From positions 13,805 to 77,804 of the IMG/VR virus record IMGVR_UViG_3300036771_000090: a stretch of 64,000 bases of DNA; one strand, 5' to 3'. The notes below the pieces were generated by a model that had not been told where the DNA came from, made no database searches, and was given only the letters and a program-made list of their open reading frames with translations. Below are positions 43,929 to 58,090 of the stretch, one piece after another; within the stretch, counting starts at the first letter, position 1, and every line of letters begins with the position of its first letter. The position numbers and the translations under genes are program-made. The DNA is from a virus.

Positions 43929-45085
43929 CGGCCCGGCTCCGCCCACTGGGCACCGATACCGGCCAGCCAGGCGGTGACCAGCTCCTCCGCCATCCGCTGC
44001 GCGGTCAGTGCGTCGTTGTGGCCTCTCAGGTGTTCCGGGACGTAGACCGGGAGAACAGTGCTCACCACGTAGTTCGGATCGGTCCGCCGGGACTTCCAGC
44101 TCAGGGAGACCAGTTCGACACCGTTGGAGCGGCCCCGGTACCCGGACCCTTCGGTCCTCCTCCAGACGATCGGGGTCCCCGGGTACGCCTCCTCCAGCGC
44201 GTCGGCCAGGAACTGGCGGCGCCCCAGACGCTGCTCCTCCACGGTCCGGATCACGCGGATCTTCACCGCGTCGCGGTACACGGCGGAGTACGACGTTCCG
44301 GGCCGCCCGTCGCCCGGAAGCCGGTAGCTGACCGAGTCGTCCGTGATCTGCTCGATCCAGCCGGTGGCCTTCGAGCCGGACAGTTTCCAGGACAGCTCCA
44401 CTTCGTCCCCCTCCTGGACAGCCTGGGCCGCCCGGGGCGCCGGGTTGCTCTCGCTGCACCGGGTGTGGCCCAGGTCGTAGCAGTCGTGGAAGGGGAGCCG
44501 GTCCGCGTCCGTCTTGAAGTCCGCGATGAAGGCCGTACCGTCCGCCAGCGTTCCGGCCAGGTCGGGCTGGTACTCCGTCAGCGGGTACGTCCAGGAGGCG
44601 CTGAAGACGTCTCCGCAGATCTTCACCACGTCGTCCCCGGTCTTCCAGGCGTGACCGGGCTGGACCTTCCAGACCTCCGGGGCACCGTTCACCTGGACGG
44701 TGATCTTGTTGGCTCCCCGGACACCGGTGACGCTGCCGCGCGGAGTGGACGGGGTGGTCCCGAAGAAGTGCTGCGACAACAGATACGCCTCCGCCGTGGC
44801 GGAGATCTCTTCGTGGCTGGCCGCCAGGCGCTCCACTTCCTCCAGCGCCTCCGCCGGGGTCAGCCGGCCAACGGCGTCCGCCGGACGCTCGGTGCCGGCC
44901 GCAGCCCAGCCGGCCGCGGTGAGGTAGTGGCCCATCTCGCCGTCGTGCCGGCCGTACTCCACCAGCCCGCGGTCCATCAGCGCCACCCTGGTTCCGGTCC
45001 TTCCGGAGTTCAGGTACTGCCATCCGCGGTTCCGCGCGAACGCGTCCAGCATGTTCATCATCACGGGGGAGAGCTTCCTGGCCAT
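43925..45085 (-). CDS. Paralog A: shared wHTH-like N-module + variable domains
   Basis: LSPVM...ALMDRGL...LTAAGW...RPADAVGRLTPAEAL. Confidence 0.75.
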   Translation of the reverse strand: MARKLSPVMMNMLDAFARNRGWQYLNSGRTGTRVALMDRGLVEYGRHDGEMGHYLTAAGWAAAGTERPADAVGRLTPAEALEEVERLAASHEEISATAEAYLLSQHFFGTTPSTPRGSVTGVRGANKITVQVNGAPEVWKVQPGHAWKTGDDVVKICGDVFSASWTYPLTEYQPDLAGTLADGTAFIADFKTDADRLPFHDCYDLGHTRCSESNPAPRAAQAVQEGDEVELSWKLSGSKATGWIEQITDDSVSYRLPGDGRPGTSYSAVYRDAVKIRVIRTVEEQRLGRRQFLADALEEAYPGTPIVWRRTEGSGYRGRSNGVELVSLSWKSRRTDPNYVVSTVLPVYVPEHLRGHNDALTAQRMAEELVTAWLAGIGAQWAEPGR

Positions 45086-45199
45086 CAGTTCCTTCTTCCT
45101 GTTCCGCCGGTGGTGGGGACCGGCCGCCGTGCGACCCCGGTACGTGGTGTCCCCGGTCGATGCTCCCGGCATCTCGTTGGCGTCCGGTCCCCGTCCCGG

Positions 45200-45300
45200 T
45201 CTCCCGGGCACAGCTCTATCTTCCCGTACTCCAGTGTCTATGTCAAATGATGTCCAACGCTGTGAGCTGCGACAATGAAACCAGTTCATGATTCTTTGAC
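45200..45300 (-). promoter_or_regulatory. Repeated promoter copy 4
   Basis: TTGACA (45246-45241)-17-GAAGAT. Confidence 0.75.
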
Positions 45301-45306
45301 ACAGGG

Positions 45307-45335
45307 AAGCCCCCGGACGGCTGTCCGGGGGCTTC
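45307..45335 (-). terminator. Cassette terminator
   Basis: GAAGCCCCCGGAC-GGCT-GTCCGGGGGCTTC. Confidence 0.7.
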
Positions 45336-45353
45336 AGGGGCGGTACGGCTGGG

Positions 45354-46475
45354 CTACTCCTCCAGCGCGTCGTCCAGTACGCGCCGCAGCGCGCGCAGGT
45401 CGTCCAGCGTCAGCCCCGGGCAGCCGGGCGTCCGGCCGATGATGATCCGGCTGCCGCTTTCCTGGTCCAGGCTCTCCAGCACGGCGTGGAAGTTGTCCAC
45501 GACGTCCGGGACGTGCTCCGGGACGGTCTCCGGGACGGTCTCCTTCTCCTCCACCGGCAGCGCGGTTCCGGACAGGTCGGTCTTCACCGCTCCGGCGTAC
45601 GTCCGGTACCCCTGGCTCTTCAGGTGGTCGAAGTGCTCCTGATGACCGGCGCACAGGAGCGACACCTTCCCGTCGGACCACACCACCCGGACCACCGCCG
45701 GGGCTCCGCAGCCGGTCCCGTTGCCGCTGGTGGTCTCCGGCACCTGGCCGGCCGTGCAGCGGGGGTTCTCCTTCACGCACACCATGTCCCCGTGGCCGGC
45801 CTGGAGCATGGCGTCCCGGGTGGCCCAGGCCGTCCCGCACTCGCACTCCACGGATTCGTCCGCCTGCTCCGGCTCCAGGTCGTCCACGAACTGCCGCGTG
45901 TCACTGCTCCAGGGGATGGTGTCGGTCGGGTCCATGTGGACCGTGACGTACGTGCGTCCGTGGTTCGGGTGACCCGGATTGTCCACCACGCCACGGTTCT
46001 CCTGCCGCACCGTTCCCGTCCGGCCGCGGTAGCCGGTGTTCGCGTCCAGACGGATCTGGACCCGGGTCCCCATCGGCCACGATTCGTCCAGGGCCGGGAC
46101 GTCCATCACCGTGACGCGCGCCTTCGGGTCCCAGTGCATACCATCCCCGGGGCGGATTCCCCGGCAGCCGGGGAATCCCCAGCCGTTCAGCCGCTCCGCG
46201 TACTCCAGCGCTTCGGCCGGCGTCATCCTGCCGTCGTCCGCCGGACGCCCGGTCCCGGACAGCTCCTGGACCAGGGTCCAGCCGGCGGGGGTGAGGACCG
46301 GGAACAGCCAGGCGTCCCCGTCCTTGTCGGTCACGTTGTGCTGGTAGGTGATCAGACCCCGGTTGATCAACGCGTCTTCCGTGCGGTTGTTGCAGTAGGC
46401 CACGGTCCCCTGGTACCCGTTCTCCGCGGCGTGCCGGAGTTCTGCTTCCATCTTCGGGGAGATGCGAACGGCCAT
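45354..46475 (-). CDS. Paralog B: shared N-module + SH3-like and Cys-rich domains
   Basis: ISPKM...ALINRGL...LTPAGW...RPADDGRMTPAEAL. Confidence 0.75.
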   Translation of the reverse strand: MAVRISPKMEAELRHAAENGYQGTVAYCNNRTEDALINRGLITYQHNVTDKDGDAWLFPVLTPAGWTLVQELSGTGRPADDGRMTPAEALEYAERLNGWGFPGCRGIRPGDGMHWDPKARVTVMDVPALDESWPMGTRVQIRLDANTGYRGRTGTVRQENRGVVDNPGHPNHGRTYVTVHMDPTDTIPWSSDTRQFVDDLEPEQADESVECECGTAWATRDAMLQAGHGDMVCVKENPRCTAGQVPETTSGNGTGCGAPAVVRVVWSDGKVSLLCAGHQEHFDHLKSQGYRTYAGAVKTDLSGTALPVEEKETVPETVPEHVPDVVDNFHAVLESLDQESGSRIIIGRTPGCPGLTLDDLRALRRVLDDALEE

Positions 46476-46560
46476 CGGGTCCTTCTTTCCTGGGTTCCTG
46501 TCGTGCTGTTGGTTCCATCTTCCCGCACCTGCTTGTCTATGTCAAGTCATGTCATAGACC
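46476..46560 (-). promoter_or_regulatory. Repeated promoter/leader copy 5
   Basis: TCTATGTCAAGTCATGTCATAGA; TTGACA-17-GAAGAT. Confidence 0.8.
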
Positions 46561-46579
46561 ATTTGCACAGGATGCAAAC

Positions 46580-46610
46580 GGCCCCCGGGAGGGTTGTCCT
46601 CCCGGGGGCC
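46580..46610 (-). terminator. Cassette terminator
   Basis: GGCCCCCGGGAGG-GTTGT-CCTCCCGGGGGCC. Confidence 0.7.
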
Positions 46611-46627
46611 GCCGTGCTCCGGCCGGG

Positions 46628-47515
46628 TCAGCTCTTCCAGGGGCCCATGACGGCCACCATCTCCCCCTTCTCCAGGGTCCGGACGTTCCCGTCCGCGCGG
46701 GTGATGACCACCAGCTCCGGCGTGACCTCCCTGCCGTCGCGCCAGACGCTGTACTCCGCGGTCTTCAGCTCCACGGATGCGATCGTCCAGGCGGCTTCGA
46801 ATCCGGGGCGGACGGCCCAGTACCGGTACCCGGGCTTGAAGTCCTCCGCGGCCAGCTCCGTGATCGCGGGCTTCTCCGCGGCCGGCTCCATGTCCTCCAG
46901 CCGGACGTACACGATGGTCTGGTGGTCGTCTTCCCGGACCGCGTGCAGACCGTTGCGCCAGTAGGACACGTACCGGGCGGTGAAGGCCGGCTGGGGAACC
47001 CAGGTCCGGTTCCAGGTGTCGAAGTGCGACTGCCGGACGATGACCTGGTCGTCCCTGGTGTAGGTGCGCTCTCCCGCTGCCGGGTACGCCTCCGCCAGCG
47101 CCTCCTCCACGGTCAGCCGGTCAGCGTCTTCCGCAGCACCCGGGTACAGGGTGCGAGCGTCCAGGATCGCGTCAAGTTCGGAGTAGCTGTACCCCGTCAT
47201 GCCGTCCCGCCAGGCCGCGTCCGCCAGCGCCTCCTCCACGGTCAGCCGGCCGGTGTCCGCCGGACGGTCCACGCCGTGCTCTGCCAGCCACGACCAGCCC
47301 GCCATGGTGATGACCAGGATGTGGCTGGCACCGTACGTCGGCTTCGGGTGGTCGGTCAGCTCCAGCAGACCACGGGAGACCAGCGCCTTCGCGGTGGTGT
47401 TCCGGCCGTTGAAGACGACCCGGTCACTGCCGTACTTCGCCTGGGTGGCGGCCACGTTGGTCAGGTACTGCCCCATGGTCTGGCTGAGCTTCGGGGACTT
47501 GGCGGTGACGATCAT
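46628..47515 (-). CDS. Paralog C: shared N-module + two SH3-like domains
   Basis: KLSQTM...ALVSRGL...ITMAGW...RPADTGRLTVEEAL (linker duplicated). Confidence 0.75.
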   Translation of the reverse strand: MIVTAKSPKLSQTMGQYLTNVAATQAKYGSDRVVFNGRNTTAKALVSRGLLELTDHPKPTYGASHILVITMAGWSWLAEHGVDRPADTGRLTVEEALADAAWRDGMTGYSYSELDAILDARTLYPGAAEDADRLTVEEALAEAYPAAGERTYTRDDQVIVRQSHFDTWNRTWVPQPAFTARYVSYWRNGLHAVREDDHQTIVYVRLEDMEPAAEKPAITELAAEDFKPGYRYWAVRPGFEAAWTIASVELKTAEYSVWRDGREVTPELVVITRADGNVRTLEKGEMVAVMGPWKS

Positions 47516-47599
47516 CGGGTCCTTCTTTCCTGGGTTCCTGTGCTGCTGTGACTCCATAGTTCCGCGAATCCTGGTCTATGTCAAGTCATGTCATAGATT
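47516..47599 (-). promoter_or_regulatory. Repeated promoter/leader copy 6
   Basis: TTGACA (47584-47579)-17-AACTAT. Confidence 0.8.
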
Positions 47600-47610
47600 A
47601 TTTCCCAGGA

Positions 47611-47654
47611 CACAGGCCGGCCCGGGAGGACAGTTCCTCCCGGGCCGGCCTGTG
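47611..47654 (-). terminator. Cassette terminator
   Basis: CACAGGCCGGCCCGGGAGGA-CAGT-TCCTCCCGGGCCGGCCTGTG. Confidence 0.7.
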
Positions 47655-47658
47655 CTGG

Positions 47659-48333
47659 TCAGACCGCTTCCACCGATATGGTCTCCAGCTCCGGGATAGA
47701 TCCCAGTTCGGGACGCACCGCAAGCAGCTTCCGCGCGATGCGGCGGACCGCGGGGAAGGACGGGACGGGCGGGTTTGCGTGCAGACCGGACAGCGTGCTG
47801 AACACGTAGGTGTACGCCTCATAGTCATCCTGGGTGACGCGTCCGGTGTGGTACTGGTCCTCCAGACTGCCCAGCGTCAGCCTGCTCATACGCAGGACAT
47901 CGCAGTCTTCGCAGCGCAATTCAAGGTGCCGGTTGCCGCTTCCGGTGTAAGCGATGTCGCACATGATCCGGTCTGACGCGTTGTGCATACGACAGTCCGT
48001 CACGGTACGGGCGGTCCGGTCTTCCACGCTGTCCAGCGCCTCTTCCACGGTCAGCCGACCGGCGTCCGCCGGGCGGTCCATGCCGTATGCGGCCTTCAGG
48101 AAGGCCCAGCCGTCCAGCGTGACGGTCCAGAGCAGCGTGGTGTCGTGGACCCGGTACTCACCCAACGCACCCAGTTCCGCGTTCGTGGACCAGCGGATCA
48201 TCCCGCGGCGCTCCAGCGCCAGGAGCGTCCGCTTCTCCGGCTCCAGGTGCGCCCGGTAGGCTCCGCGGCCCAGGTAGACCAGCGCCTCCTCCATGGTCTG
48301 GCTGAGCTTCAGGGACTTGGCGGTGGCGGTCAT
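47659..48333 (-). CDS. Paralog D: shared N-module + Cys-containing domain
   Basis: KLSQTM...ALERRGM...VTLDGW...RPADAGRLTVEEAL. Confidence 0.75.
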   Translation of the reverse strand: MTATAKSLKLSQTMEEALVYLGRGAYRAHLEPEKRTLLALERRGMIRWSTNAELGALGEYRVHDTTLLWTVTLDGWAFLKAAYGMDRPADAGRLTVEEALDSVEDRTARTVTDCRMHNASDRIMCDIAYTGSGNRHLELRCEDCDVLRMSRLTLGSLEDQYHTGRVTQDDYEAYTYVFSTLSGLHANPPVPSFPAVRRIARKLLAVRPELGSIPELETISVEAV

Positions 48334-48417
48334 CGGGTCCTTCTTTCCTGGGTTCCTGTGCTGCTGTGACTCCATAGTCCCGTGAATCCTGGTCTACGTC
48401 AAGTCATGTCATAGATT
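48334..48417 (-). promoter_or_regulatory. Repeated promoter/leader copy 7
   Basis: TTGACG (48402-48397)-17-GACTAT. Confidence 0.8.
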
Positions 48418-48435: not shown

Positions 48436-48463
48436 AGCCCCGGGGGACCGGGCCCCCGGGGCT
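48436..48463 (-). terminator. Terminator of the tra/spd operon
   Basis: AGCCCCGGGGG-ACCGGG-CCCCCGGGGCT. Confidence 0.6.
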
Positions 48464-48477
48464 GCCTGTACCACGTC

Positions 48478-48891
48478 TCACCTGCGGCGCTTCCCCTTGC
48501 CCTTCGGCTCCTCCAGGGTCTCCCGGAGTGACTTGATCGCGGCAGCGCTTCCGATCATCAGCACGGCCACCGCTCCGACGGCCGCAGCCGCCGCGATGAC
48601 CAGCGCCACCACGGAACCCAGGACAGCGATCAGGACCGGCGCCAGGATGACCGCGATCACGGCCAGACCGCCGGTGATGACCAGTCCGCCGAGAAGGACG
48701 AAGAAGTACGGGACGTACCGGTCCAGGACGTTCTGACCGGGATTCTGGTTCACCGGCGCCGTGTCGATCACCGGCGCCGCGTAGTGGTGGTGGATGTGGA
48801 TGACCTGGTCTCCTCCGGGGATCTGGCCCGTCTCCCCTGCCGAAGGCAGGTAGGTGGTCCGGTGGACCACCGCCTTGCGCTGCTCTTCCAT
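48478..48891 (-). CDS. Spd-like membrane protein (SpdD-type architecture)
   Basis: IHIHHHY motif, long hydrophobic C-terminus, basic tail; in the traB operon. Confidence 0.6.
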   Translation of the reverse strand: MEEQRKAVVHRTTYLPSAGETGQIPGGDQVIHIHHHYAAPVIDTAPVNQNPGQNVLDRYVPYFFVLLGGLVITGGLAVIAVILAPVLIAVLGSVVALVIAAAAAVGAVAVLMIGSAAAIKSLRETLEEPKGKGKRRR

Positions 48892-48897
48892 GCTTCC

Positions 48898-48999
48898 TCA
48901 CATCCAGTGCGACACGGCCCAGACCGCTGCCAGGAACAGCAGAACGATCACGGCCAGGGTGCGGTTGGCACGCCACCGGGCCGACCGCCTGTGACTCAC
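48898..48999 (-). CDS. 33-aa single-TM peptide
   Basis: Manual translation MSHRRSARWRANRTLAVIVLLFLAAVWAVSHWM; GTGA coupling. Confidence 0.55.
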   Translation of the reverse strand: MSHRRSARWRANRTLAVIVLLFLAAVWAVSHWM

Positions 49000-49199
49000 G
49001 GGCGGGCCCGGCGCCGGACCACGGCGTACAGCGGCGCGGTGATGATGGCGTCCGCCACGACGATGAACACGATGGCCAGGAAGGTGGCCGCCACCGGACT
49101 GTTGACCTTGTCGCCCGGCAGCAGCGAAGCCACCATGGCGATCAGCAGCAGCACGGCCGCCGCGTGGACGAAGTAGATTATTTCCTTGATCGCTCGCAT
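48996..49199 (-). CDS. Small two-TM Spd-like protein
   Basis: 67 aa, two hydrophobic helices, GAAGGAAG RBS. Confidence 0.6.
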   Translation of the reverse strand: MRAIKEIIYFVHAAAVLLLIAMVASLLPGDKVNSPVAATFLAIVFIVVADAIITAPLYAVVRRRARP

Positions 49200-49221
49200 G
49201 ATCGTTTTCTTCCTTCTCGGG

Positions 49222-49372
49222 TGTCTGACGCGGGTTGTGACGGATCGGGAGAGTGTCTTAGGTCGGAGCCGGTGTCAGCGGTCTGACAGGCGTTTCTGAC
49301 AGCCTTCTGACAAGGGCTGACACCGGCTCTGACATGCGGTTCTGACAGGTACTGACACCGGCTCTGACAGGG
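49222..49372. repeat. clt: clt-like locus (TraB recognition repeats)
   Basis: Eight direct CTGACA at 49283, 49296, 49307, 49317, 49329, 49342, 49352, 49364 plus an inverted copy at 49273, immediately downstream of traB. Confidence 0.8.
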
Positions 49373-49375
49373 TCT

Positions 49376-51424
49376 TCAGTTGGCCCGGTGGCCGTTTCTG
49401 ATACGGGGGCGGACGACGTACGGGGGCTTGCCGTTGCTGGTCTCCAGGCGGCCGGCTTCGGTGAGGCGCTTCAGCTCCGCGTACACCCACTGCCGGGTCC
49501 GGCCGGTGATGCCCGGAAGCTCCGACAGTGCTTCGAAGGTGATTTCCGCGGCGCCGCCTGCCTCCAGTTCATCGATCTTGGCTTCCAGGGCCGCGCGTGC
49601 GTCCGCGGTGGACATCCGGCCGCCCGCGGGCTCCGGACGGAGGCTGAAGGACCCGGCAAATCCGGGGTCCGGGATGGGTTCGGTCACGTCGATCAGGGCT
49701 CCGTCTTCGTCGGGGACCGCGGTCAGGTCCAGCGCCTGCTCCCGGTCGTTGTCGGTTTCGCCGTACCAGTTCACCGGGTCTTCGTCCGGTGCCGGGACGT
49801 CCAGGGGGACCGGGGGCAGACCGGCGGTCAGCTTCGAGTCCGGCACCTGGATGCCGGCCCCCAGGCACATGGCCGTTCCGGGGTCCAGAACGGCCCAGAA
49901 GGGCCGGCTGGCGTCCAGTTCGGCACGCTTCTGGGTCCTGGTCAGCCGCAGTGCACGGCCTTCCACCGCCCACAGCGTCCGGTCGGTCCCGATCGACTCC
50001 GCGTAGTGCTTGCCGGGGAAGTCGGCACCCCACTTGGTGGGGTCTGCTCCGGCTTCCCGGGTGGTCGCGGACAGGGTGAACTTGGCGTCGTAGTCCTCCC
50101 GGCAGCCGAAGGCGAGTGCGTTGGCGAACAGACCGCGGGTCCGGCGGTCGATGTTCTGGTTGTGGGCGGTCTGCATGGACGCGAAGATGGCGAAGCCGAC
50201 CGACCGGGCCGTCCTGACAGCGGTGTCAAAGTCGTCGTCACTGCTGCTCAGGACGGTTGCCGCCTCTTCGATGTCGATCATCACGAAGGGGATTCCGTGC
50301 AGCGTCCAGCATTCGGGTTCCCACTGCCCGTAGCCCACCGTTCCGTCGGAGCGCGGCAGCGTTCCCAGCCGCTCCGCCCGGTACCGGATGGCGTCCGGCA
50401 GGTTCTTGATCAGGCGCATGACCTGGGCCGGTCCCTTGGCCGCAATGGACAGCGTGTCCGCGATCTCCCCAAAACTCTGTTCGAACTTGTCGGGGTCCCC
50501 GACCACCGCGCAGAAGTCGATCCGGCTGCGGCCGTCGATGATGATCGTCTTCACACCTTCGGTCTTGCCGGAGTTCGGCACGCCTGTGACCAGCGTGTGT
50601 CCCGAAGGACGGCCGCTTTCGTCGTCGCCTCCCATCCAGATGGCCATGTCCGATCCGTCCCGCCGGCCGCCGTAGACCAGCGGTCCCGCGGCCACCGACT
50701 GGCCCGGCCGGGAAGGGCCGTTCCAGAGCATGACCGCGTTCGCGTCCTCCTCCGGCTCGAAGGCCAGGGTGACCTGGTCACCACGGCCCCTGACACCTGT
50801 CACGGTCACTTCGTTGGGGTCCATACCGACCGCGGAGGCGATGTGCGCACGGGCCGCGGTGACGTCTTCCACGGTGCTGTCACCCGGTTTGAGCTGGACT
50901 TTTGCCTCCACCCGGTTGCCTGACTCCTTGACCTTCTTCGTCCGGGCACCGGCCAGCGCTGACACCCGCTGGAACAGCGGGTCCTTGTGGCCTTCGGCCT
51001 TGTCGGTGTCGTGGTGCGCGGACATCGCACCGTGCCGGAGGTTCCACGCCAGGGACAGAACGACCGTGCCGAAGGCCCAGACCTTCACCATCTCCGGGTT
51101 GAGCGGATCGGTGGCGCTGGCCAGCGTGAACCAGCCGGTCACGGCGCCGGTGAAGACCGTGGCGAGAGCCCTGGTCAGTTCGTGGCGCCGGGCCCAGGTG
51201 GCACGGACATAAAGGGTCAGACCGACCGATCCGGCGCCCATCAGCGCCACCATCGAGCCGTCCCCCTGGACTGCGATGTGGGTCACCAGCGCCGCCGGCA
51301 TCGCGGCGGCGCTGATGGACCACGGGACCATGTGCGGAAGCAGCCGGGAACCGGCCAGCTCTCCGACACCCAGACGCTTCGTTCGTACCGGTGACGTGCT
51401 CTTTCCCTTGCCGCTGCCGCTCAT
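49376..51424 (-). CDS. traB: Conjugative DNA translocase TraB (FtsK/SpoIIIE family)
   Basis: N-terminal TMs, Walker A GVPNSGKT, Walker B MIDIEEA, ARSVG, WGA.FPG, C-terminal wHTH GRTRQWVYAELKRL.EAG. Confidence 0.9.
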   Translation of the reverse strand: MSGSGKGKSTSPVRTKRLGVGELAGSRLLPHMVPWSISAAAMPAALVTHIAVQGDGSMVALMGAGSVGLTLYVRATWARRHELTRALATVFTGAVTGWFTLASATDPLNPEMVKVWAFGTVVLSLAWNLRHGAMSAHHDTDKAEGHKDPLFQRVSALAGARTKKVKESGNRVEAKVQLKPGDSTVEDVTAARAHIASAVGMDPNEVTVTGVRGRGDQVTLAFEPEEDANAVMLWNGPSRPGQSVAAGPLVYGGRRDGSDMAIWMGGDDESGRPSGHTLVTGVPNSGKTEGVKTIIIDGRSRIDFCAVVGDPDKFEQSFGEIADTLSIAAKGPAQVMRLIKNLPDAIRYRAERLGTLPRSDGTVGYGQWEPECWTLHGIPFVMIDIEEAATVLSSSDDDFDTAVRTARSVGFAIFASMQTAHNQNIDRRTRGLFANALAFGCREDYDAKFTLSATTREAGADPTKWGADFPGKHYAESIGTDRTLWAVEGRALRLTRTQKRAELDASRPFWAVLDPGTAMCLGAGIQVPDSKLTAGLPPVPLDVPAPDEDPVNWYGETDNDREQALDLTAVPDEDGALIDVTEPIPDPGFAGSFSLRPEPAGGRMSTADARAALEAKIDELEAGGAAEITFEALSELPGITGRTRQWVYAELKRLTEAGRLETSNGKPPYVVRPRIRNGHRAN

Positions 51425-51437
51425 GGCCCTACCTCCT

Positions 51438-52001
51438 TCAGGTCCGGATACCGAAGTGCTTGGTCTTCTTGCGGGGGACGCCGGCCAGTTGGTCCCCGAA
51501 CGCCTCTTCGAAGGTCTTCCAGACCCCCACGAACGCCACCGCGGCGTCCGCGGAGGCTTCCCCGGCCTTGTTCAGCCTCTTGGTCACGCGCCGCATCTTG
51601 AACACGGCCCCCAGGGACCTCACACCACGGTCCATGTCCCGGGCGCCGGCGGTCAGTTCGCCGCTCTGGAGATGGATCTCCACGGCAAGCCGGTGGAACA
51701 GTGCCCGGCCGGTCTCGCACAGCGCGTACAGGTCGTTCTGGTCTCCCAGCTCCTGGTCCACGAAGGTCCGGATCAGGGTGGCCAGATCCTTCTTCGCGCT
51801 GCTCCCCGCACCTGTCTGGCCACCGTTTCCGCTGGCAACGGGCATTCCGTCCATCCGAAGACCCCTCTCCCTTGCGTCCTGTTCGTTGGCCGGGCGGGTG
51901 CCGCGGGTGCTGTTCTCCCCCGGCTGCACCGGGGGCCGGGCCGGAGCCGGGCGCGCCGGGCGTGCCTGGGCAGGTCCCGGCAGGTTCCAGTCGTCGCTCA
52001 C
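51438..52001 (-). CDS. TraA-like plasmid transfer accessory protein
   Basis: Low-complexity N-terminus and helical C-terminus (...FEEAF...) directly upstream of traB; GTG with AGGAG RBS (alternative start 51854). Confidence 0.65.
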   Translation of the reverse strand: MSDDWNLPGPAQARPARPAPARPPVQPGENSTRGTRPANEQDARERGLRMDGMPVASGNGGQTGAGSSAKKDLATLIRTFVDQELGDQNDLYALCETGRALFHRLAVEIHLQSGELTAGARDMDRGVRSLGAVFKMRRVTKRLNKAGEASADAAVAFVGVWKTFEEAFGDQLAGVPRKKTKHFGIRT

Positions 52002-52017
52002 GGGCTGATCACTCCTC

Positions 52018-53079
52018 TCACGCACTCTGGTCCAGCGCGCGCCGGGCGCGCCGGATGCTGGTGTTGATCGTGTTGTCCTTCGTGTCCTGGCCGAACTTCT
52101 CCCGGACCAGAGCCTTGATCGTTGTGTTGTCCGTGTCCTCACCGCGGACCAGGATGTCCTGGATGAAGGAGGACACGGAGCCGTCCGCGGTCCGGCGGAC
52201 GGAAGGCAGGGGGACAGCGGCCGGGACAGCCAGGGACATGTCCCCGTCGGTGTCCTCCGGCTCCGGGCCGTCCATGTAGGGGTCGTGGACCGGAGTGGGG
52301 ACAATGTCCCCGTCGTGTCCCCGGGTCCGGTCCATCACCGTTGCGGTGTCCTGGGACACCCGGATGGTGTCCCGTCCGGCCGGCAGGACATCCGCGGTGT
52401 CCTTCAGGGCGTGTCCCGGGGACAGGAACGCCGTGTCCCATGACGGGACAAGCTCCGTGTCCAGGGTGTCCCCCGTGTCCTTGCTGTCCGGCAGGACAGC
52501 CGAAGTGTCCTTCAGGACACCGGCCGGGACACGGGACACGCTGTCCCCGGACGGGACAGCTCCCAGGACACCGGCGACACGGGACAGGGCGCGTGCGCCG
52601 GCCGGGGACGCGGCCAGGTGGAGCAGGTGTCCGAAGACCAGGGCCGGGATGCAGCTCACCACGACGGTCAGTGTCTGCTTGTACGTCCAGATGTCACCCG
52701 GCTGCCAGCCGCTGCCGTACAGGTGCGCGATGGGCTGTGCGGCCATCGCCAGCACGATGGAGACGATGGCGCCGCCTACGGCGGTCTTCTTGCCCGGGGC
52801 GCCCTTGCCGCGCTTGGTGGCCACCACGGCGGCTACACCGGCGTACATGGTCAGTACGGCCGGCATCCCCCAGGAGAGTTCCTTGTTCCAGCCGGCCAGG
52901 TGCGCCAGGTAGTGCTCACCGGGGGCACACATGATCAGTACGATCACAGCCACCGCGGGGCGGACCACGTTCTGGATGCCGTTAACCCAGGCCAGCTCTT
53001 CGTCCTTGTCCTTCACCCGGGAGCCGGGGACAGGGACAACCGTGGCCGTGTCCTTCGGGGACTTCTTCCACAGCTTCAT
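52018..53079 (-). CDS. SpdB-like membrane protein with repeat linker and putative C-terminal DNA-binding domain
   Basis: Four TMs (CAPGEHYLA.LAGW...VSCIPALVFGHLLHLAA), DT/VP-rich linker, helical C-terminus ...NTINTSIRRAR. Confidence 0.75.
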   Translation of the reverse strand: MKLWKKSPKDTATVVPVPGSRVKDKDEELAWVNGIQNVVRPAVAVIVLIMCAPGEHYLAHLAGWNKELSWGMPAVLTMYAGVAAVVATKRGKGAPGKKTAVGGAIVSIVLAMAAQPIAHLYGSGWQPGDIWTYKQTLTVVVSCIPALVFGHLLHLAASPAGARALSRVAGVLGAVPSGDSVSRVPAGVLKDTSAVLPDSKDTGDTLDTELVPSWDTAFLSPGHALKDTADVLPAGRDTIRVSQDTATVMDRTRGHDGDIVPTPVHDPYMDGPEPEDTDGDMSLAVPAAVPLPSVRRTADGSVSSFIQDILVRGEDTDNTTIKALVREKFGQDTKDNTINTSIRRARRALDQSA

Positions 53080-53099
53080 CGTGTCCTCCTCCGTCGGGA

Positions 53100-53155
53100 C
53101 AGGAATTAATTTAGTTGTCCCATTGAAAGGGACAGCGCCCGGACTGTCAAGGACA
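53100..53155 (-). promoter_or_regulatory. Promoter of the spd/tra operon embedded in GGACA boxes
   Basis: TTGACA (53151-53146)-17-TTCAAT with TGTCC boxes on both sides and in the spacer. Confidence 0.65.
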
Positions 53156-53193
53156 GATCCGGGCGCCGGAGGACAGGACACGGGACAGGGACA

Positions 53194-53532
53194 CTACGGA
53201 TGTCCCTGGGGGACATAGCGACGGGGACACTGTCCTGTCCACCGGCGTCCGTCGAAGAAGGACACCCAGTGTCCTCTGTCCCCGGTGTCCTGTCCTTCTG
53301 CGGTGAGCAGGACACCGCTGTCCCCCAGGACATCCGGGCTGTCCTGGGGGACAGCAGACAGGCAGGACATGGAGGCTGTCGCCTGGAGCAGCGCGCGGGA
53401 CAGTCCCCGGAACGCCTCCGTAAGGGAGAACATCGTCTCCGTTGCGCGGGCCCGGCGCTCCGGGGCGGTGAGCGCCAGTTCCTCCGCGATCCGGGACAGC
53501 TCCGCCAGCGGGGACGGGGACACGGCGGTCAC
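53194..53532 (-). CDS. Hypothetical protein (3' half runs through the GGACA array)
   Basis: GTGA-coupled start. Confidence 0.45.
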   Translation of the reverse strand: MTAVSPSPLAELSRIAEELALTAPERRARATETMFSLTEAFRGLSRALLQATASMSCLSAVPQDSPDVLGDSGVLLTAEGQDTGDRGHWVSFFDGRRWTGQCPRRYVPQGHP

Positions 53533-53756
53533 CGGTCCAGCTCCTTCACGGTGTCCTGCGGCAGAGCCGGAGACAGACGGTCCGATACGTCCACGGTCAG
53601 TTCCGCGGAGCGCAGCGTCCCACCGAAGGACGTGCTGACGCTGAAGCACTCCAGCCCCGTGGCGCCGGCCCGGCGCGCCTCCGCGCACAGGGACTCCATC
53701 CGCTCCAGCGTCAGCCCGCTCTTGTCCGTCTCACCGATCTTGACTGTAGCCGCCAT
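53529..53756 (-). CDS. Hypothetical protein
   Basis: Coupled ORF. Confidence 0.6.
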   Translation of the reverse strand: MAATVKIGETDKSGLTLERMESLCAEARRAGATGLECFSVSTSFGGTLRSAELTVDVSDRLSPALPQDTVKELDR

Positions 53757-54104: not shown

Positions 54105-54770
54105 TCACCGCCCCCGGTCCGCGCGGCCGGCGGTGGACGTGGCGGGATGCGCGTTCCAGCGCCACGTCCTGCGGTCCAGGTGTTCGAACTTCGCGCCGGC
54201 GTCCAGCAGCCTGATCAGATAGTCTTCGTCCTCCCCGCGGTACCGGCCGTCTTCGAGCCGGTGACCTTCCCGGAAGCCTCCGATCTCCCGGACCAGTCCG
54301 GTACGCACCAGGTGCGTCATCGGGATGAAACTCCCCTGGCGCCGCAGGTGCGCTTCCTGCTCCGGGCCGAAGCGCAGCCCCCAGGGATAGGTGAGCTGAC
54401 CCTGGAAGGTGACTGCGGTGGGGTCGGCGCCGCCGGCCATCACCGGGACGGGGTACACCAGATCCACGTCCGGGTTCATCTCCAGGACGCGCATACAGAC
54501 CCGGATGTGGTGCGGCAGGAATTCGTCGTCGTCGTCCAGCCACGCCACCACGTCTGTCTCCACACGCGCCACGGCCCGGCTGCGCGCCTGTGCGGCACCG
54601 GTGCGGGTGGTGTCCCGCTCCACCACCACCTGGTCCGGGAACCGGGTCTGGGCACGCACCGACGCCATGGCGCGCTCGAAGAGCGCTTCGCGGCCGGGGA
54701 TTGTCGGGATCACCACGGCCACGGTCAGGTGACGGGAGTTGCGCCCGGCGCGGCGCTTCGCCTCACCCAT
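54105..54770 (-). CDS. Glycosyltransferase family 2
   Basis: VVIPT, WLDDDDE, GEDED. Confidence 0.9.
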   Translation of the reverse strand: MGEAKRRAGRNSRHLTVAVVIPTIPGREALFERAMASVRAQTRFPDQVVVERDTTRTGAAQARSRAVARVETDVVAWLDDDDEFLPHHIRVCMRVLEMNPDVDLVYPVPVMAGGADPTAVTFQGQLTYPWGLRFGPEQEAHLRRQGSFIPMTHLVRTGLVREIGGFREGHRLEDGRYRGEDEDYLIRLLDAGAKFEHLDRRTWRWNAHPATSTAGRADRGR

Positions 54771-55656
54771 CGGTGTCCTCCTTCGGGAAGCAGCGCGCGA
54801 TGCCTTCTTCCAGCGTCACGCGCGGTGTGTACACGGTCTGGAGCAGTTCAGGGTCTCCGACGCGGTACGCGACGCCCGACGGCTTGCCGGGATCGGGGAG
54901 GATCTGGTCCGGGGTGTAGCCGGCCGCCGCGCAGACCAGCTCCGCCAGACGCGTGAAGGACGTCGGGATGCCGGTGGCGATGTTGACCGGGATCTCCGCG
55001 TCCGCTCCGGCCAGCGCCAGGGTGGCGGCCACGATGTCATCGACGTGGACGAAGTCCCGGACACAGTCCCCGCACCACAGGCCGAAGGGGTCTTCCCGGC
55101 GCCGGGCCCGCTCGATGAACGCCCGGAAGGGGTACGTGTCGTCCTGGTCCTCTCCGTAACCGGAGAACGGCCGGACCACGGTGACCGGAACGCCGGCGTC
55201 CCGGAGCCGGTCGGCCATCTGCTCCCCGACCACCTTGGACAGGCCGTACAACTGGTCGGGCTCCGCGCCGTTCATCATGTGCTCTGTGAGGCTGTAGCGG
55301 TGGGCCGCGTCCTGGAGCCAGACCGGGTACGCCGCGGAGCTGGAGAAGTAGACCACCCGGCCGGGACGGGCGGCTGCGGCCCAGTGGAACATCTCCGCGT
55401 CCAGGGCGAAGTTGACCGAAGTGGCCAGCGGACTGCCGTCGATCGTCTCCCGGCCGCCGATGACGGCCGCCGCGTGGACGACCAGGTCGTACCGGCCGGG
55501 CACCCGGGCTCCGATGTTCCGGGTGAAGTACGCCCGGCAGTCCTGGGAGCTGGTCCGTTTGGTGTCCAGGCCGGTGACGTCGTACCCGCGTGCCTCCAGC
55601 TCCGTGCGGAAATGGCGGCCCAGGAAGCCCAGGTCCCCCGTGATCAGCGCTCTCAC
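54763..55656 (-). CDS. NAD-dependent epimerase/dehydratase
   Basis: TGDLGFLG, HAAA, SSSAAY, YGLSK, RPFSGYG, RDFVHVDD. Confidence 0.9.
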   Translation of the reverse strand: MRALITGDLGFLGRHFRTELEARGYDVTGLDTKRTSSQDCRAYFTRNIGARVPGRYDLVVHAAAVIGGRETIDGSPLATSVNFALDAEMFHWAAAARPGRVVYFSSSAAYPVWLQDAAHRYSLTEHMMNGAEPDQLYGLSKVVGEQMADRLRDAGVPVTVVRPFSGYGEDQDDTYPFRAFIERARRREDPFGLWCGDCVRDFVHVDDIVAATLALAGADAEIPVNIATGIPTSFTRLAELVCAAAGYTPDQILPDPGKPSGVAYRVGDPELLQTVYTPRVTLEEGIARCFPKEDTDG

Positions 55657-55976
55657 TTCTCCTCCAGGTGCAGAATGTGGACCAGGTGGTAATGGCCGCG
55701 GTAGCCGGCCCGGGTCCAGAAGGTCCGGCCGCAGCCGTCTTCCGGACAGACCTTCTTCAGGGACGTGCCCTGGAGCCGGTACGCCGGGATGAGCACCGGC
55801 CGGCCGCGCAGTTCCTGTTCGGCCCGGATGTGGTCCAGCGCGTAGTGGCCGCGGTAGCCGGCCCGGGTGAACCAGCCCCGGCCGCAGTCGCAAGTCACCA
55901 GGAAGACACCGTGGAACGGCTCCGGCACGGCCGGGGACCAGCCGCCCCGGGTGTTGGTCTGCCCGGTGCTGCTCAC
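55653..55976 (-). CDS. Tandem C2H2 zinc-finger protein
   Basis: CDCGRGWFTRAGYRGHYALDH and CPEDGCGRTFWTRAGYRGHYHLVH. Confidence 0.75.
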   Translation of the reverse strand: MSSTGQTNTRGGWSPAVPEPFHGVFLVTCDCGRGWFTRAGYRGHYALDHIRAEQELRGRPVLIPAYRLQGTSLKKVCPEDGCGRTFWTRAGYRGHYHLVHILHLEEK

Positions 55977-56125
55977 CGCACGGTCCTTCCGCAGTCGGGG
56001 CAGACCGCGGAGGCGAACTGCGGCCCTGGAGCATGGCCCCATACAGGGCAGATAAACGCCTGATATACGCGGCGCCGGACCGGCCGGTACTGGCGCGACG
56101 GACGCACCCCGCGCCGGCTCTTCAC
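55973..56125 (-). CDS. Small basic Cys/His protein
   Basis: ICPVWGH...CPDCG. Confidence 0.5.
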   Translation of the reverse strand: MKSRRGVRPSRQYRPVRRRVYQAFICPVWGHAPGPQFASAVCPDCGRTVR

Positions 56126-56730
56126 CAGTTGCTCCCGGAGCCGGACGTGTTGCCGCCGTGCCAGCGCCACTCCCAGGTCCGGCCGGAGTGGTGGACGAAC
56201 TTCGCGCCGGCATCCAGCAGCTTGATCCACATCCCCCAGTCCTCACAGGGGTTGGCGGGGTCTCCGCGGTGCTCGAAGCCGCCGGCCCGGTGCAGCAGCT
56301 CCGTACGGGCCAGGACGGTGATCGGGATGTAGTTCTGGCGCTCCCGGATCACCTCCTCCCGGAACGGCTGGCCTTCGTACTCCGGGAAGGGATCGAATCC
56401 GCGGGGGACGTCGAACCAGGGGTACACCACGTCCGCGCCGGTGCTCTGTGCCGTGTCCAGGAGCGCGCGCAGATGGCCCGGGTACCAGACGTCGTCGGAG
56501 TCCAGGAAGGCCGTCCAGCGCGTGTTCACCACTTCCAGGGCTCGGTTGCGGGTGACGGCCGCTCCTTCGTGGAGCACGTCCACCGCCACGGAGAGCGCGG
56601 CTGCGGGCTGGGTCTGCTTCGACACGCTGGCCACGGCCTGGCCCAGCATCCCGTTCAGGAGGTTCGGGTGGTGGGCCGGGATCACGGCGGTGACGCCGGG
56701 CCGGTAGAAGTTGGTCTCTCGCTGGGTCAT
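56122..56730 (-). CDS. Glycosyltransferase family 2
   Basis: AVIPAH, FLDSDD, CEDW. Confidence 0.9.
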   Translation of the reverse strand: MTQRETNFYRPGVTAVIPAHHPNLLNGMLGQAVASVSKQTQPAAALSVAVDVLHEGAAVTRNRALEVVNTRWTAFLDSDDVWYPGHLRALLDTAQSTGADVVYPWFDVPRGFDPFPEYEGQPFREEVIRERQNYIPITVLARTELLHRAGGFEHRGDPANPCEDWGMWIKLLDAGAKFVHHSGRTWEWRWHGGNTSGSGSNW

Positions 56731-57401
56731 CGGTGCGCCATCCACATCTGGAAGCGGTAGGGGGAGCCGGCGAACTGCGGGGTGAACACGGTGTGGTCGT
56801 AGACCTTCCACCCGGCGGTGTGGAGCATCCGGGAGATGTCCAGACAGTCCCATCCCCAGTAGTGCTCCGGGTTCATCGCGGGATCGGTTTCCCCGTCCGG
56901 TGTGGTGATCAGGATGTTCCGGGACTTGGTGCGGACCGCGGCCAGGAAGGTGTCCGGGTCGTCCAGGTGCTCCAGCGTTTCGGAGCACACGAACAGGTCC
57001 ACGTCCCGCATCGCCTCCAGGGTCTGCTCCACGGGCCCTTCGTGGAGTTCGATCCGTGACGCCAGATGGAAGACGGTGTTCGGCATCTCCACCCCGGAAC
57101 GGACCTGGGAGCCGCGGGTGATCGAGTCGGAGAGCTTCAGGTCCCCCAGCACGACGGTCCAGTACCGCTTCAGGTCACTGGACAGGATTTTCTCCACGAT
57201 GGCCGCGTCACCGCACGACAGGTCGGCTACGGAACCGGCCATCACCAGACCGCTGTCCAGGTGCTTGCGGACGAAGTCCGCCGTGGCGGCAACGCGCTCG
57301 ATGTGGTCAGGCCACTGGGTGTGCTGGTAGCCGTCCGGGTAGCGGCCGGCGTAGAACTCCCGCGCGTCGGGGTATGCCTCCCGGAGCCGGACGCGCGTCA
57401 C
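56727..57401 (-). CDS. Class I SAM-dependent methyltransferase
   Basis: ADLSCGDA, SETLEHLDDP, EHYWGW. Confidence 0.85.
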   Translation of the reverse strand: MTRVRLREAYPDAREFYAGRYPDGYQHTQWPDHIERVAATADFVRKHLDSGLVMAGSVADLSCGDAAIVEKILSSDLKRYWTVVLGDLKLSDSITRGSQVRSGVEMPNTVFHLASRIELHEGPVEQTLEAMRDVDLFVCSETLEHLDDPDTFLAAVRTKSRNILITTPDGETDPAMNPEHYWGWDCLDISRMLHTAGWKVYDHTVFTPQFAGSPYRFQMWMAHR

Positions 57402-58090
57402 CGGCCGTACTCCGCGTTCACGCGCGACAGGGCCGCACTCAGACCGCCTTCGGCCGCGTCCCGGTAGGCCAGCCAGGCTCCGCGGTCCGCGGAGTCCACT
57501 TCCGGGGCGTTGGCCTCCCGGTACGTCTGGTCCATGCCCGCTTTGCCGTTGGCCGGGTGGATGTGCTCGATGACGACGTCCGGCAGGTAGACCAGGCCGT
57601 CCAGGCGCTCCCCCAGCTCCTTCCAGAAGTTGTCCAGGTACAGGTGGATCATCCCGGGCGGCACCATGTAGCCCAGCGCCCGGACGATCCGGGACTGAAG
57701 GAAGACCGCTGTGGGGAGGTTGGGCCCCTGGAGCAGGTCGTTCCCGTAGACCACCCGGGGCTGGAGGCTGTCCAGCATGGTCAGGACGGCCGCGTCCCAG
57801 CCGACAGTCCGGGGGAGGTGGTCGTCCCCCATGAAGCCCAGCGCGTCGTACTGGTGCGCGTTGACCGCGGCCATGTCGTTCAGGGTGGGCCCCAGGCGCT
57901 TGCGGTGGACGATGGCCAGTTGCGGCAGGTCCAGCCGGACGTATTCCATGCACTTGGGGTCGTCGTCGTCCACGACGTACAGGAAGTCCACTTCCGGCCC
58001 CATCACCGACATGGCGGAACGTGCCTCCTCCAGCCGGGCCACGTTCTCCGGCCGGCCGCGGGACGGCACGATCACCAGCATTCTGATCAT
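57398..58090 (-). CDS. Glycosyltransferase (GT-A fold)
   Basis: VPSRGRP, VDDDDP, GFMGDDH, HLYLDN, IEHIH. Confidence 0.85.
   Translation of the reverse strand: MIRMLVIVPSRGRPENVARLEEARSAMSVMGPEVDFLYVVDDDDPKCMEYVRLDLPQLAIVHRKRLGPTLNDMAAVNAHQYDALGFMGDDHLPRTVGWDAAVLTMLDSLQPRVVYGNDLLQGPNLPTAVFLQSRIVRALGYMVPPGMIHLYLDNFWKELGERLDGLVYLPDVVIEHIHPANGKAGMDQTYREANAPEVDSADRGAWLAYRDAAEGGLSAALSRVNAEYGR

Follow-up and report, generated by a model that had tools for sequence, protein, structure and literature searches.

A plasmid-type TraB-clt module, probably for DNA transfer and spreading, in the genome of a tailed soil phage

Analysis of a 64,000-nucleotide stretch of IMG/VR record IMGVR_UViG_3300036771_000090 (the window) revealed a single co-oriented unit on the minus strand at positions 48436-53155, in which all parts named in a previous sequence-only reading are present, in the order promoter-like site, gene for a membrane protein with four transmembrane spans (4-TM), traA, traB, repeat array, three small membrane genes and hairpin (Table 1). 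The intact, plasmid-type operon claimed in that reading is therefore found as described, and it lies in the complete genome of a tailed phage. What the analyses described below establish is that the parts have the stated identity and are intact, that the repeat array is present, and that the module is conserved and old. We consider it probable that this stretch is a working plasmid-type TraB-clt transfer/spreading module, which is ancestral and vertically inherited in a family of tailed phages and phage-plasmids of 60-98 kb that belong to Streptomyces-like actinomycetes. As far as can be judged from its sequence, the phage has long inherited, within its own genome, the one-protein TraB pump, docking repeats and membrane helper genes by which Streptomyces plasmids transfer dsDNA from hypha to hypha. 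Large soil phages of an old lineage in which such a plasmid DNA pump is kept together with its docking site and membrane partners blur the line between phages and conjugative elements.

Parts of the module and the genome around it

The genome is that of a 78-kb tailed phage from soil, and the IMG/VR record is rated 100% complete by CheckV and has terminal repeats. Terminase, portal, capsid, tape measure and lysin genes on the same contig bear out the apparently complete virion gene set that had been reported for it, and replication is represented by a gene for a 1539-aa primase-helicase-PolA fusion. The genes adjoining the module encode glycosyltransferases and phage paralogues. In a search of sequencing runs, module DNA was detected in three soil metagenomes, the source sample possibly among them, and no match was obtained in isolates or RNA runs. 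INPHARED phages gave no match, either to the DNA of positions 46-56 kb or, by tblastn, to TraB, although close records may lie outside this search.

Table 1. Features of the transfer module (positions within the window)
Feature	Positions	Strand	Basis or remark
Upstream block of about 33 RGGACA(C/G)(C/G) boxes, both orientations	53011..53556		enriched over rest of window
Promoter-like site, TTGACA-17 nt-TTCAAT	53122..53150	-	ahead of module; read by eye
Gene in SpdB slot, 353 aa, four hydrophobic spans (residues ~32-158)	52018..53079	-	hydropathy
Second block of about 37 RGGACA boxes, through 3' half of membrane gene	52078..52636		four frame/orientation classes
traA-like gene, 187 aa if the start is GTG at 52001	51438..52001	-	start read behind GAGAGGAG
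traB, predicted FtsK-type membrane dsDNA translocase with C-terminal winged helix	49376..51424	-	profile, motifs, model
clt-like array, 8 direct TGTCAG(A) and 1 inverted CTGACACC	49271..49369	-	read by eye
Gene for small membrane protein of 67 aa with two hydrophobic spans	48996..49199	-	hydropathy; GC3 0.91
Gene for small membrane protein of 33 aa with one hydrophobic span	48898..48999	-	read from sequence
Small membrane gene, 137 aa, C-terminal half long and hydrophobic	48478..48891	-	hydropathy
GC-rich hairpin without T run, end of unit	48436..48463	-	folding energy

Profile searches with TraB (682 aa) gave a match to the NCBIfam family plasmid_TraB (NF041214) with an E-value of 4.7e-117 and 392 bits, extending over residues 26-673 of the protein and positions 4-634 of the 639-position profile; the score lies below the equivalog cut-off of 800 bits, and the match to Pfam FtsK_SpoIIIE was below threshold. 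Judged by this match, TraB is a clear plasmid_TraB homologue of a divergent subfamily. The motifs GVPNSGKT and IDIEEA are present, and Walker A residues G281, G286 and K287 as well as the Walker B residue E387 are invariant across 33 relatives. In the AlphaFold model (pLDDT 80.8), four long N-terminal helices (residues 20-52, 56-76, 82-104 and 110-133), which were left unflagged by a strict hydropathy cut-off, are followed by an alpha/beta core and a C-terminal winged helix consisting of three helices within residues 606-656 and two strands at 660-671. When the model was compared with the PDB by Foldseek, the best matches were FtsK motor domains with dsDNA (E 9e-13); a sequence search of the PDB with TraB gave no match. 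Profile, motifs, model and Foldseek are thus in agreement with the FtsK-type TraB with membrane spans and C-terminal winged helix that had been read from the letters.

The preceding gene product, described as TraA-like, gave a match to NCBIfam plasmid_TraA (NF041213) with an E-value of 4.2e-10 and 39.9 bits, which is under the cut-off of 80, and 13 nt separate the end of traA from traB, a placement resembling that in pSN22 and the S. canus plasmid. An annotated gap of 14 nt is shared by pSN22, pS1D4-14.2 and the S. canus plasmid; that of pWTY27 is 44 nt. Of 30 related loci, 18 encode a TraA homologue ahead of traB.

At the other end of the unit, hydrophobic spans were found in each of the three small membrane genes that had been proposed. 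The GTG of the 33-aa gene overlaps the stop of the 67-aa gene, and G or C occupies the third position in 29 of the 33 codons of the former; weak homologues of the 137-aa product are encoded after traB in about 16 related loci. Of the promoter and terminator claimed for the operon, a promoter-like site and a hairpin exist, but the former fails the rule of a consensus scan and the latter lacks a T run. The promoter-like site is followed by a ribosome-binding site, GGAGGAGGA, at about 53084-53092, and a folding energy of -34.3 kcal/mol was calculated for a 56-nt stretch with the hairpin (z -2.5).

Two sets of repeats and the gene in the SpdB slot

The repeat locus that had been noticed just after traB was recovered with eight TGTCAG copies and one inverted copy. 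It lies directly after the traB stop codon, with a spacing of 11-13 bp and a higher-order unit of 35 bp, and the array is non-random, six of the seven TGTCAGA sequences of the whole window falling in 49282-49369. Relatives possess arrays at the same place with varied motifs, and in one subclade a change of the array from GTGTCA to TGATCA accompanies a change at the start of the TraB recognition helix from GRxRGW to G(K/F)TPxW. Arrays at the same place are also found in pSN22 (CCGCACA, eight copies), in the S. canus plasmid (CTGACAC, seven copies and one inverted) and in pWTY27 (TGACACC, four copies and an inverted copy). The clt of pWTY27 has been footprinted (PMC3583192), and the phage array shares position and a CTGACA(C) core with it. 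On these grounds we regard the clt-like array as the putative cognate clt of TraB.

By homology to pSVH1, pJV1 and pWTY27, TraB would form hexamers in the membrane, its C-terminal winged helices would bind to the TGTCAG repeats that lie immediately 3' of traB, and the FtsK-type motor would drive the phage replicon, as unprocessed double-stranded DNA, into an adjacent hypha or compartment, with the 4-TM protein, TraA and the three small membrane proteins as likely equivalents of spread proteins. We infer DNA binding and transfer, as well as the stage of the life cycle at which the module would be used. As the phage carries a plasmid-type pump, a docking site and helpers, it may spread without virions, for which pZL12 offers a laboratory precedent, and dual spread, by virion and by conjugation, is plausible. 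Streptomyces forms a compartmented mycelium, and how phages handle its compartments is poorly understood. Transducing phages are reported to be rare, and genes are considered to flow mainly by conjugation (PMC6722414, PMC9513070). If the pump works, phages of this lineage could spread through a colony without lysis and escape receptor-based resistance; chromosomal DNA might also be mobilised, because TraB acts on clt-like chromosomal sites (PMC4170104).

In the protein encoded in the SpdB slot, the four spans are followed by a linker rich in D and T and by a C-terminal domain, conserved and about 55 aa long. No tblastn match to it was obtained in 72,556 plasmids. Homologues are found in phages (mu1/6 gp30, Success gp8, Attoomi, Ponzi), and 425 proteins match at E <= 0.001, many of them with a C-terminal HTH. 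When compared by hhalign with plasmid SpdB2-type proteins, only the C-terminal domain was aligned (56 columns; probability 71%, E 3.8e-5), and alignments of the 4-TM family with single plasmid SpdB sequences were negligible. Neither DUF2637 nor another membrane-domain family was recognised in the protein. A link to DUF2637 suggested by a protein atlas was discarded, since sub-threshold matches were confined to Success gp8 and pSN22 SpdB, with none in the SpdB-slot protein or 28 relatives. Among the relatives, the slot holds either the phage-type 4-TM protein or a plasmid-type SpdB2, never both. The term SpdB-like is based on topology, position and a weakly shared C-terminal domain, and is not established by sequence family.

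About 70 RGGACA boxes are spread over this gene and the region upstream of it, the upstream block spanning an intergenic region of about 450 bp and reaching into the opening codons of the membrane gene. The boxes are enriched 10-11-fold when compared to the rest of the window, and about 20 of 29 related loci have a cluster of the same motif on the upstream side of traB, at a distance of 1.1-2.7 kb. Comparable arrays occupy the 3' half of spdB in conjugative plasmids, with 21 copies of CGCGACA in the S. canus plasmid and 14 copies of CGTGAGC in pSN22. The DnaA-box consensus of Streptomyces is TTGTCCACA; the flanks of the TGTCC core in the phage boxes (S-S-TGTCC-Y) do not fit it, and a reading as DnaA boxes was rejected. 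Similarly, a reading as SpdA/sps sites was dismissed, sps being the palindrome CGTCACGTGACG (PMC4170104). Both the RGGACA arrays and the comparable ones in spdB genes of plasmids are candidates for marking a cis site of intramycelial spreading.

Relatives and history of the module

An alignment-based scan of viral contigs revealed the same module synteny, including the flanking glycosyltransferase, in 30 other viral contigs from different samples, pS1D4-14.2 among them; a scan with a single protein had given none. All 24 of the 24 viral TraBs analysed form a single clade (SH-aLRT 100, stem 0.54) nested among actinomycete TraBs. TraB distances follow terminase distances (Mantel r 0.75), and none of 2000 permutations gave a value as high. 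A TraB-less subclade is nested among TraB-bearing relatives, and a history of one old gain and one loss fits these data. Three complete relatives lack TraB, and the module is therefore dispensable for the phage. When these three genomes were searched for the 4-TM gene, two gave no match, which we count in favour of the transfer and spreading module.

The long residence proposed earlier is thus sustained by synteny, by the TraB clade and by co-divergence of TraB and terminase, although one argument made for it proved weak. A general lack of restriction palindromes had been claimed; seven specific hexamers are indeed wholly absent, but a general depletion was not confirmed. Avoidance of these palindromes does not prove residence, because the transfer regions of pSN22 and of the S. 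canus plasmid are likewise poor in the seven sites.

As the module is self-contained between promoter-like site and hairpin, one might envisage that a small, independent element (AICE or plasmid) has recently entered the phage genome, or that the contig is a phage-plasmid assembly chimera. Pfam searches of the whole genome revealed no integrase and no tyrosine or serine recombinase, a Rep-type neighbour of the module was not found, and no att-like repeats bracket the module or traB, a lone exact 15-mer pair being at chance level and inside genes. Since these searches gave no integrase, recombinase, ParA, ParB, GntR/TraR or att repeats, the module is not a nested AICE. The synteny across samples and the monophyletic TraB clade that co-diverges with terminase also speak against insertion or chimerism, which we consider highly improbable.

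The closest named relative is pS1D4-14.2 (NZ_CP041606.1), a 98.8-kb plasmid of the cultured Streptomyces sp. S1D4-14, which shares with the phage more than 30 proteins that are 35-70% identical; terminase, portal, capsid, tape measure and the PolA fusion belong to this set. Its traA-traB pair lies at the same place with the same glycosyltransferase alongside, and its TraB is 42% identical to that of the phage. Unlike the phage, this plasmid, which possesses virion genes, encodes ParA, ParB and a tyrosine recombinase (integrase) and has about 20 kb more DNA, and its SpdB slot is filled by a plasmid-type SpdB2 that is 70% identical to the S. canus plasmid protein. In the literature available to us it is not described as a phage-plasmid, and its presence in a cultured strain provides testable material.

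Precedent for the combination of phage and transfer genes had been named in the sequence-only reading and is real: pZL12/phiZL12 is a Streptomyces plasmid-phage (Zhong et al. [quoted passage not shown] Elements of the pZL12 type and the phage alike combine tailed-phage virion genes and a TraB-type transfer locus in a single replicon, and matches to TraB and terminase were obtained in 85-kb plasmids of strains W9 and W75, which, like pSLE1, are relatives of pZL12. The pZL12 group is a different lineage: TraB identity is 29-30% and restricted to residues 30-534, and the terminases are about 37% identical over the C-terminal 190 residues. Also, pZL12 and pSLE1 carry ParA/ParB (PMC4487206), whereas the phage has neither. 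Of the traits of a pZL12-type phage-plasmid, the phage thus displays virion genes and transfer locus but no recognisable maintenance genes.

With the small plasmids pSN22/pJV1, pWTY27 and pSVH1, the TraBs of which are 27-29% identical to that of the phage, it shares the order of the genes, in which traA immediately precedes traB, a clt of direct repeats right after or straddling the traB end, then membrane spd genes, and a second short-motif array in the 3' half of spdB. In contrast to these plasmids, there is no divergent GntR-type traR, the host replicon is a 78-kb phage, and the 4-TM gene, with a membrane domain of another family, is located upstream of traA and not downstream of traB.

Maintenance genes and possible roles

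A check of circularity and of par and rep genes had been proposed; the record has terminal repeats and is rated complete, and no ParA (AAA_31) or ParB (ParB_N) was recognised in the genome. The kil-kor partner TraR, of the GntR family, is reported in all conjugative Streptomyces plasmids (PMC4447253); no PF00392 match was found in the whole phage genome at E <= 1. The phage is devoid of recognisable maintenance genes that a plasmid or prophage donor state is expected to need, and having no recognisable integrase, ParA or ParB, it has no known donor state.

A tentative reading, to which we assign a rather low probability, is that the module serves a movement function with no plasmid or prophage state, TraB, clt and membrane proteins pushing replicating DNA across cross-walls or into touching hyphae before lysis; the comparison with plant-virus movement proteins would be equally tentative. 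In agreement with it, 10 of 20 other near-complete TraB-bearing relatives likewise have neither Phage_integrase nor AAA_31/ParA, and NCBIfam and PHROGs scans of the left-arm genes recognised no repressor or partition function. However, few Pfam families were searched and other maintenance systems could escape, spreading itself may serve plasmid stability (PMC4170104), and a sister branch has ParA and integrase, one member being a plasmid in culture.

A further and improbable reading is segregation or anchoring, in which septal pumping or membrane tethering, and not mating, would keep a par-less episome in mycelium and spores. TraB is a relative of FtsK/SpoIIIE, spd genes and SpdA/sps affect plasmid stability (PMC4170104), and the 4-TM protein with its RGGACA arrays persists in a relative that lost TraB. 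Yet TraB is a transfer protein in every plasmid tested, its loss abolishing transfer (PMC4447253), and an episomal state of the phage is only presumed.

Along with the transfer and spreading module that we favour, a more speculative scheme may be considered, namely that in a phage without lysogeny or partition genes two cis/trans pairs anchor the replicating genome and move it between hyphal compartments without virions. TraB and the TGTCAG array might, with similar reservation, constitute the first pair, and the second could conceivably consist of the membrane-anchored putative DNA-binding protein and the RGGACA boxes over its own gene. If true, the scheme would amount to a bacterial equivalent of the movement proteins of viruses, and the second pair would represent an undescribed tethering or spreading cis site, for which spdB of classical conjugative plasmids has other motifs.

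Involvement of spread proteins in phage biology has been suggested before. SpdB2 of pSVH1 binds dsDNA, forms pores and interacts with TraB (PMC4447253), and SpdB2 homologues on the actinophages phiC31 and VWB were proposed to help phage DNA to spread (Thoma et al. 2015, PMC4447253). As described there, phiC31 and VWB carry an SpdB2-like gene alone, whereas the phage studied here combines a motor, a cis site and an accessory set.

Layout of the module and its TraB protein

Genes of the predicted transfer module were called from GC3, and its parts proved to be co-oriented, as the sequence-only reading had proposed, forming one unit from a promoter-like site to a closing hairpin. The traA product gives a weak match to the plasmid_TraA profile (E 4.2e-10). 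Between the traA stop and traB there are 13 nt, close to the 14 nt annotated in the conjugative Streptomyces plasmids pSN22 and that of S. canus and in pS1D4-14.2, a plasmid of Streptomyces sp. S1D4-14.

Features of the transfer module and short-motif arrays compared (window coordinates unless prefixed by a locus handle, L)
Feature	Position	Strand	Basis
Promoter-like TTGACA-17-TTCAAT	53122-53150	minus	reading; fails rule of promoter scan
Membrane gene in SpdB slot, 353 aa, four hydrophobic spans	52018-53079	minus	hydropathy
traA-like gene	51438-52001	minus	weak plasmid_TraA profile match
traB	49376-51424	minus	plasmid_TraB profile match, motifs, model
Repeat array (clt-like)	49271-49369	minus	motif count and reading
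Three small membrane genes, 67, 33 and 137 aa	48478-49199	minus	hydropathy, reading
GC-rich hairpin, closing the unit	48436-48463	minus	folding
Short-motif arrays at SpdB-slot genes of this genome and others	52078-53556; L079:556-706 and 1409-1718; L006:7933-8529; L005:5797-6253		

TraB contains the motifs GVPNSGKT and IDIEEA, and HMM comparison bore out its assignment, NCBIfam plasmid_TraB being matched over the whole length (E 4.7e-117) with 392 bits against a cut-off of 800. The phage family phrog_24831 was also matched, and the score for Pfam FtsK_SpoIIIE was below threshold. In an AlphaFold model calculated from 33 relatives (pLDDT 80.8), four long helices make up the N-terminal part, followed by an alpha/beta core and, after a disordered linker, a winged helix at the C-terminus; the top fold matches of this model in the PDB are FtsK motor domains with bound dsDNA, followed by the TcpA coupling protein.

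Repeat arrays and the gene in the SpdB slot

TGTCAGA occurs seven times in the 64-kb window, six of these inside the 88 bp immediately 3' of the traB stop. By eye, this clt-like array comprises eight TGTCAG and one inverted copy, CTGACACC, with a 35-bp higher-order unit. At the equivalent position, pSN22 carries eight copies of CCGCACA, the motif of the functionally defined clt of pJV1 (PMC3583192), and the S. canus plasmid seven of CTGACAC plus one inverted copy. In pWTY27, four TGACACC and an inverted copy lie across the traB end, where a footprint of the Tra protein was obtained (PMC3583192), and the CTGACA(C) core is common to this array and that of the phage. Relatives of the phage show TGTCAG, TGTCACG, TGTCGGC, GTTCGG or TGATCA at the equivalent position. 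In one subclade, a switch from GTGTCA to TGATCA is accompanied by a change at the start of the TraB recognition helix, a single event suggesting that array motif and helix may change together.

The 353-aa protein upstream of TraA had no match in PLSDB by tblastn. Conservation of its membrane domain is strong, with 425 proteins matching at E <= 0.001 and the best 120 of them 52-81% identical. The Streptomyces phages mu1/6, Success, Attoomi and Ponzi are among those that encode this domain, which often comes together with a C-terminal HTH. For the SpdB2 homologues of phages phiC31 and VWB, a spreading role has been suggested in print (PMC4447253). In 11 relatives, pS1D4-14.2 among them, the slot is taken by a protein that shares 56-78% identity with the SpdB2-type protein encoded on the S. 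canus plasmid; 13 related loci, like this genome, have the type found here, and no locus has both. When the two families were compared profile to profile, the C-terminal 56 columns alone aligned (probability 71%, E 3.8e-5). The designation SpdB-like thus stands as to the hydrophobic spans and the alternation with the SpdB2 type, but not as to homology beyond those columns. Judged from these sequences, the membrane domain has probably been exchanged at a functionally equivalent slot.

About 70 RGGACA(C/G)(C/G) boxes, half in each orientation, occupy the 450 bp upstream of the membrane gene as well as its 3' half and are absent from the part coding for the transmembrane spans. They fall into four frame/orientation classes, which points to selection acting on DNA rather than on the peptide. 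About 20 of 29 related loci have an RGGACA cluster upstream of traB, irrespective of the membrane-domain type, and in classical plasmids analogous arrays occupy the 3' half of spdB (CGTGAGC x14 in pSN22; CGCGACA x21 in the S. canus plasmid, extending beyond the stop codon). In one TraB-less relative, a 4-TM protein bearing the shared C-terminal domain is kept together with dense GGACA arrays, among them a tandem (GGACAG)n run. No RGGACA-type array was found with mu1/6 gp30 or Success gp8, phage homologues whose C-termini differ; the arrays thus track the C-terminal domain of the membrane protein and not TraB. In our working idea, a membrane-tethered protein would bind boxes over its own gene, as an analogue of SpdA, whose sps sites lie within spdA (PMC4170104). 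No published description of short-motif arrays over spdB-slot genes was found in the literature examined. Directly downstream of the module are four tandem paralogous genes (43925-48375, minus strand), each behind a promoter/leader copy of about 150 nt, with copies up to 90% identical to one another. An internal segment of 47-66 nt is shared by all four genes (repeat families D1-D6), and their products are candidate binders of the RGGACA boxes.

Replicon and lifestyle

The window comprises bases 13805-77804 of one 77,804-bp IMG/VR virus record rated 100% complete, whose ends carry an exact 127-bp repeat, taken to be an overlap left by assembly of a molecule that is circular or circularly permuted. 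The virion gene set noted earlier was recovered (terminase, portal, capsid, tape measure, minor tail, lysin), and the genome has its own replication genes, including a DEAD helicase and a 1539-aa primase-helicase-PolA fusion. The latter (L002:6584-11203, plus strand, outside the window) unites DUF3854 (toprim-like), D5_N, a D5-type helicase (DUF5906) and a family A DNA polymerase in one chain and is kept in pS1D4-14.2 (50% identity).

Searches of the whole genome for tyrosine integrase, serine recombinase, AAA_31/ParA, ParB_N and GntR proteins gave no match, and no att-like repeats bracket the module. The alternative of a nested independent AICE is therefore unsupported. Among 21 near-complete TraB-bearing genomes, ParA was found in five, a tyrosine recombinase in nine and neither in 11, including this phage, in counts that cover few families, unrecognised maintenance systems being possible. 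A 301-aa protein (35397-36302, minus strand) matches phrog_6247 'DNA topoisomerase' (E 2e-108) but nothing in Pfam, NCBIfam or, by sequence, the PDB; should it be a topoisomerase of type IB or an enzyme resembling recombinases, it would bear on the statement about integrases. DNA of the module was found only in soil metagenomes.

Age and inheritance of the module

Long residence had been proposed from a genome-wide lack of restriction palindromes. CTCGAG, CTGCAG, GAGCTC, AGGCCT, TCGCGA, CAGCTG and GCATGC are indeed wholly absent from the 77.7-kb genome (about 26 each expected from base composition) and from the module (0 versus about 11 for all seven), but palindromes as a class are not depleted and plasmid transfer regions are likewise poor in these hexamers. 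Relatives avoid other subsets.

Comparison with relatives upholds long residence. Identity to this TraB is 39-69% for about 50 metagenome proteins and then falls, with a gap, to about 28% for plasmid TraBs. The closest named relative, pS1D4-14.2 from a cultured Streptomyces (TraB 42%, terminase 62%), has more than 30 proteins in common with the phage, traA-traB adjoining a family-2 glycosyltransferase in both, and possesses ParA, ParB and a tyrosine recombinase besides. A profile-guided scan yielded 30 IMG/VR contigs (29-98 kb) with this type of TraB, across which the order glycosyltransferase, membrane gene, traA, traB, small membrane genes is kept; an orthologous terminase is present in all 20 TraB-bearing contigs at least 90% complete. 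A tree of the 24 viral TraBs and 57 others from actinomycetes places the viral ones in a single clade (SH-aLRT 100, stem 0.54) nested among chromosomal and plasmid TraBs. Patristic distances of TraB and terminase are correlated (Mantel r 0.75, a value reached in 0 of 2000 permutations); two taxa are discordant.

Because ascertainment via TraB is circular, a second sampling began from the terminase; its new records comprised two with TraB and seven without, three of the latter with terminal repeats (58, 67 and 79 kb). By terminase, all seven group in a single clade within the TraB-bearing phages, which is most simply explained by a single old gain followed by a single loss. From the tree, the distance correlation and the TraB-less clade we therefore conclude that the module is ancient, mostly vertically inherited and dispensable.

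The combination of phage and transfer locus has, as noted earlier, an experimental precedent in pZL12, cited in PMC3583192 and PMC4487206. The present case adds the family-wide history of a predicted transfer module with its one gain and one loss, the absence of TraR and, in half of the family, of maintenance genes, the probable exchange at the SpdB slot, and a second array common to phage and plasmids.

In pWTY27, a 14-kb conjugative plasmid, a gene annotated 'phage major capsid protein' lies two genes downstream of traB and clt (L053:3643-4501, NC_013667.2 10642-12102). The terminase large subunit of six relatives (G003, G011, G016, G020, G025, G027) matches in two pieces 0.6-1.7 kb apart, and the terminase match in pS1D4-14.2 overlies an annotated HNH endonuclease gene (L003:42409-44559). 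Several glycosyltransferases and a sugar epimerase/dehydratase flank module and terminase (54105-58090, 1935-3161, 33645-34727), and the module's best-conserved neighbour is the family-2 glycosyltransferase (54105-54770; relatives 59-76% identical).
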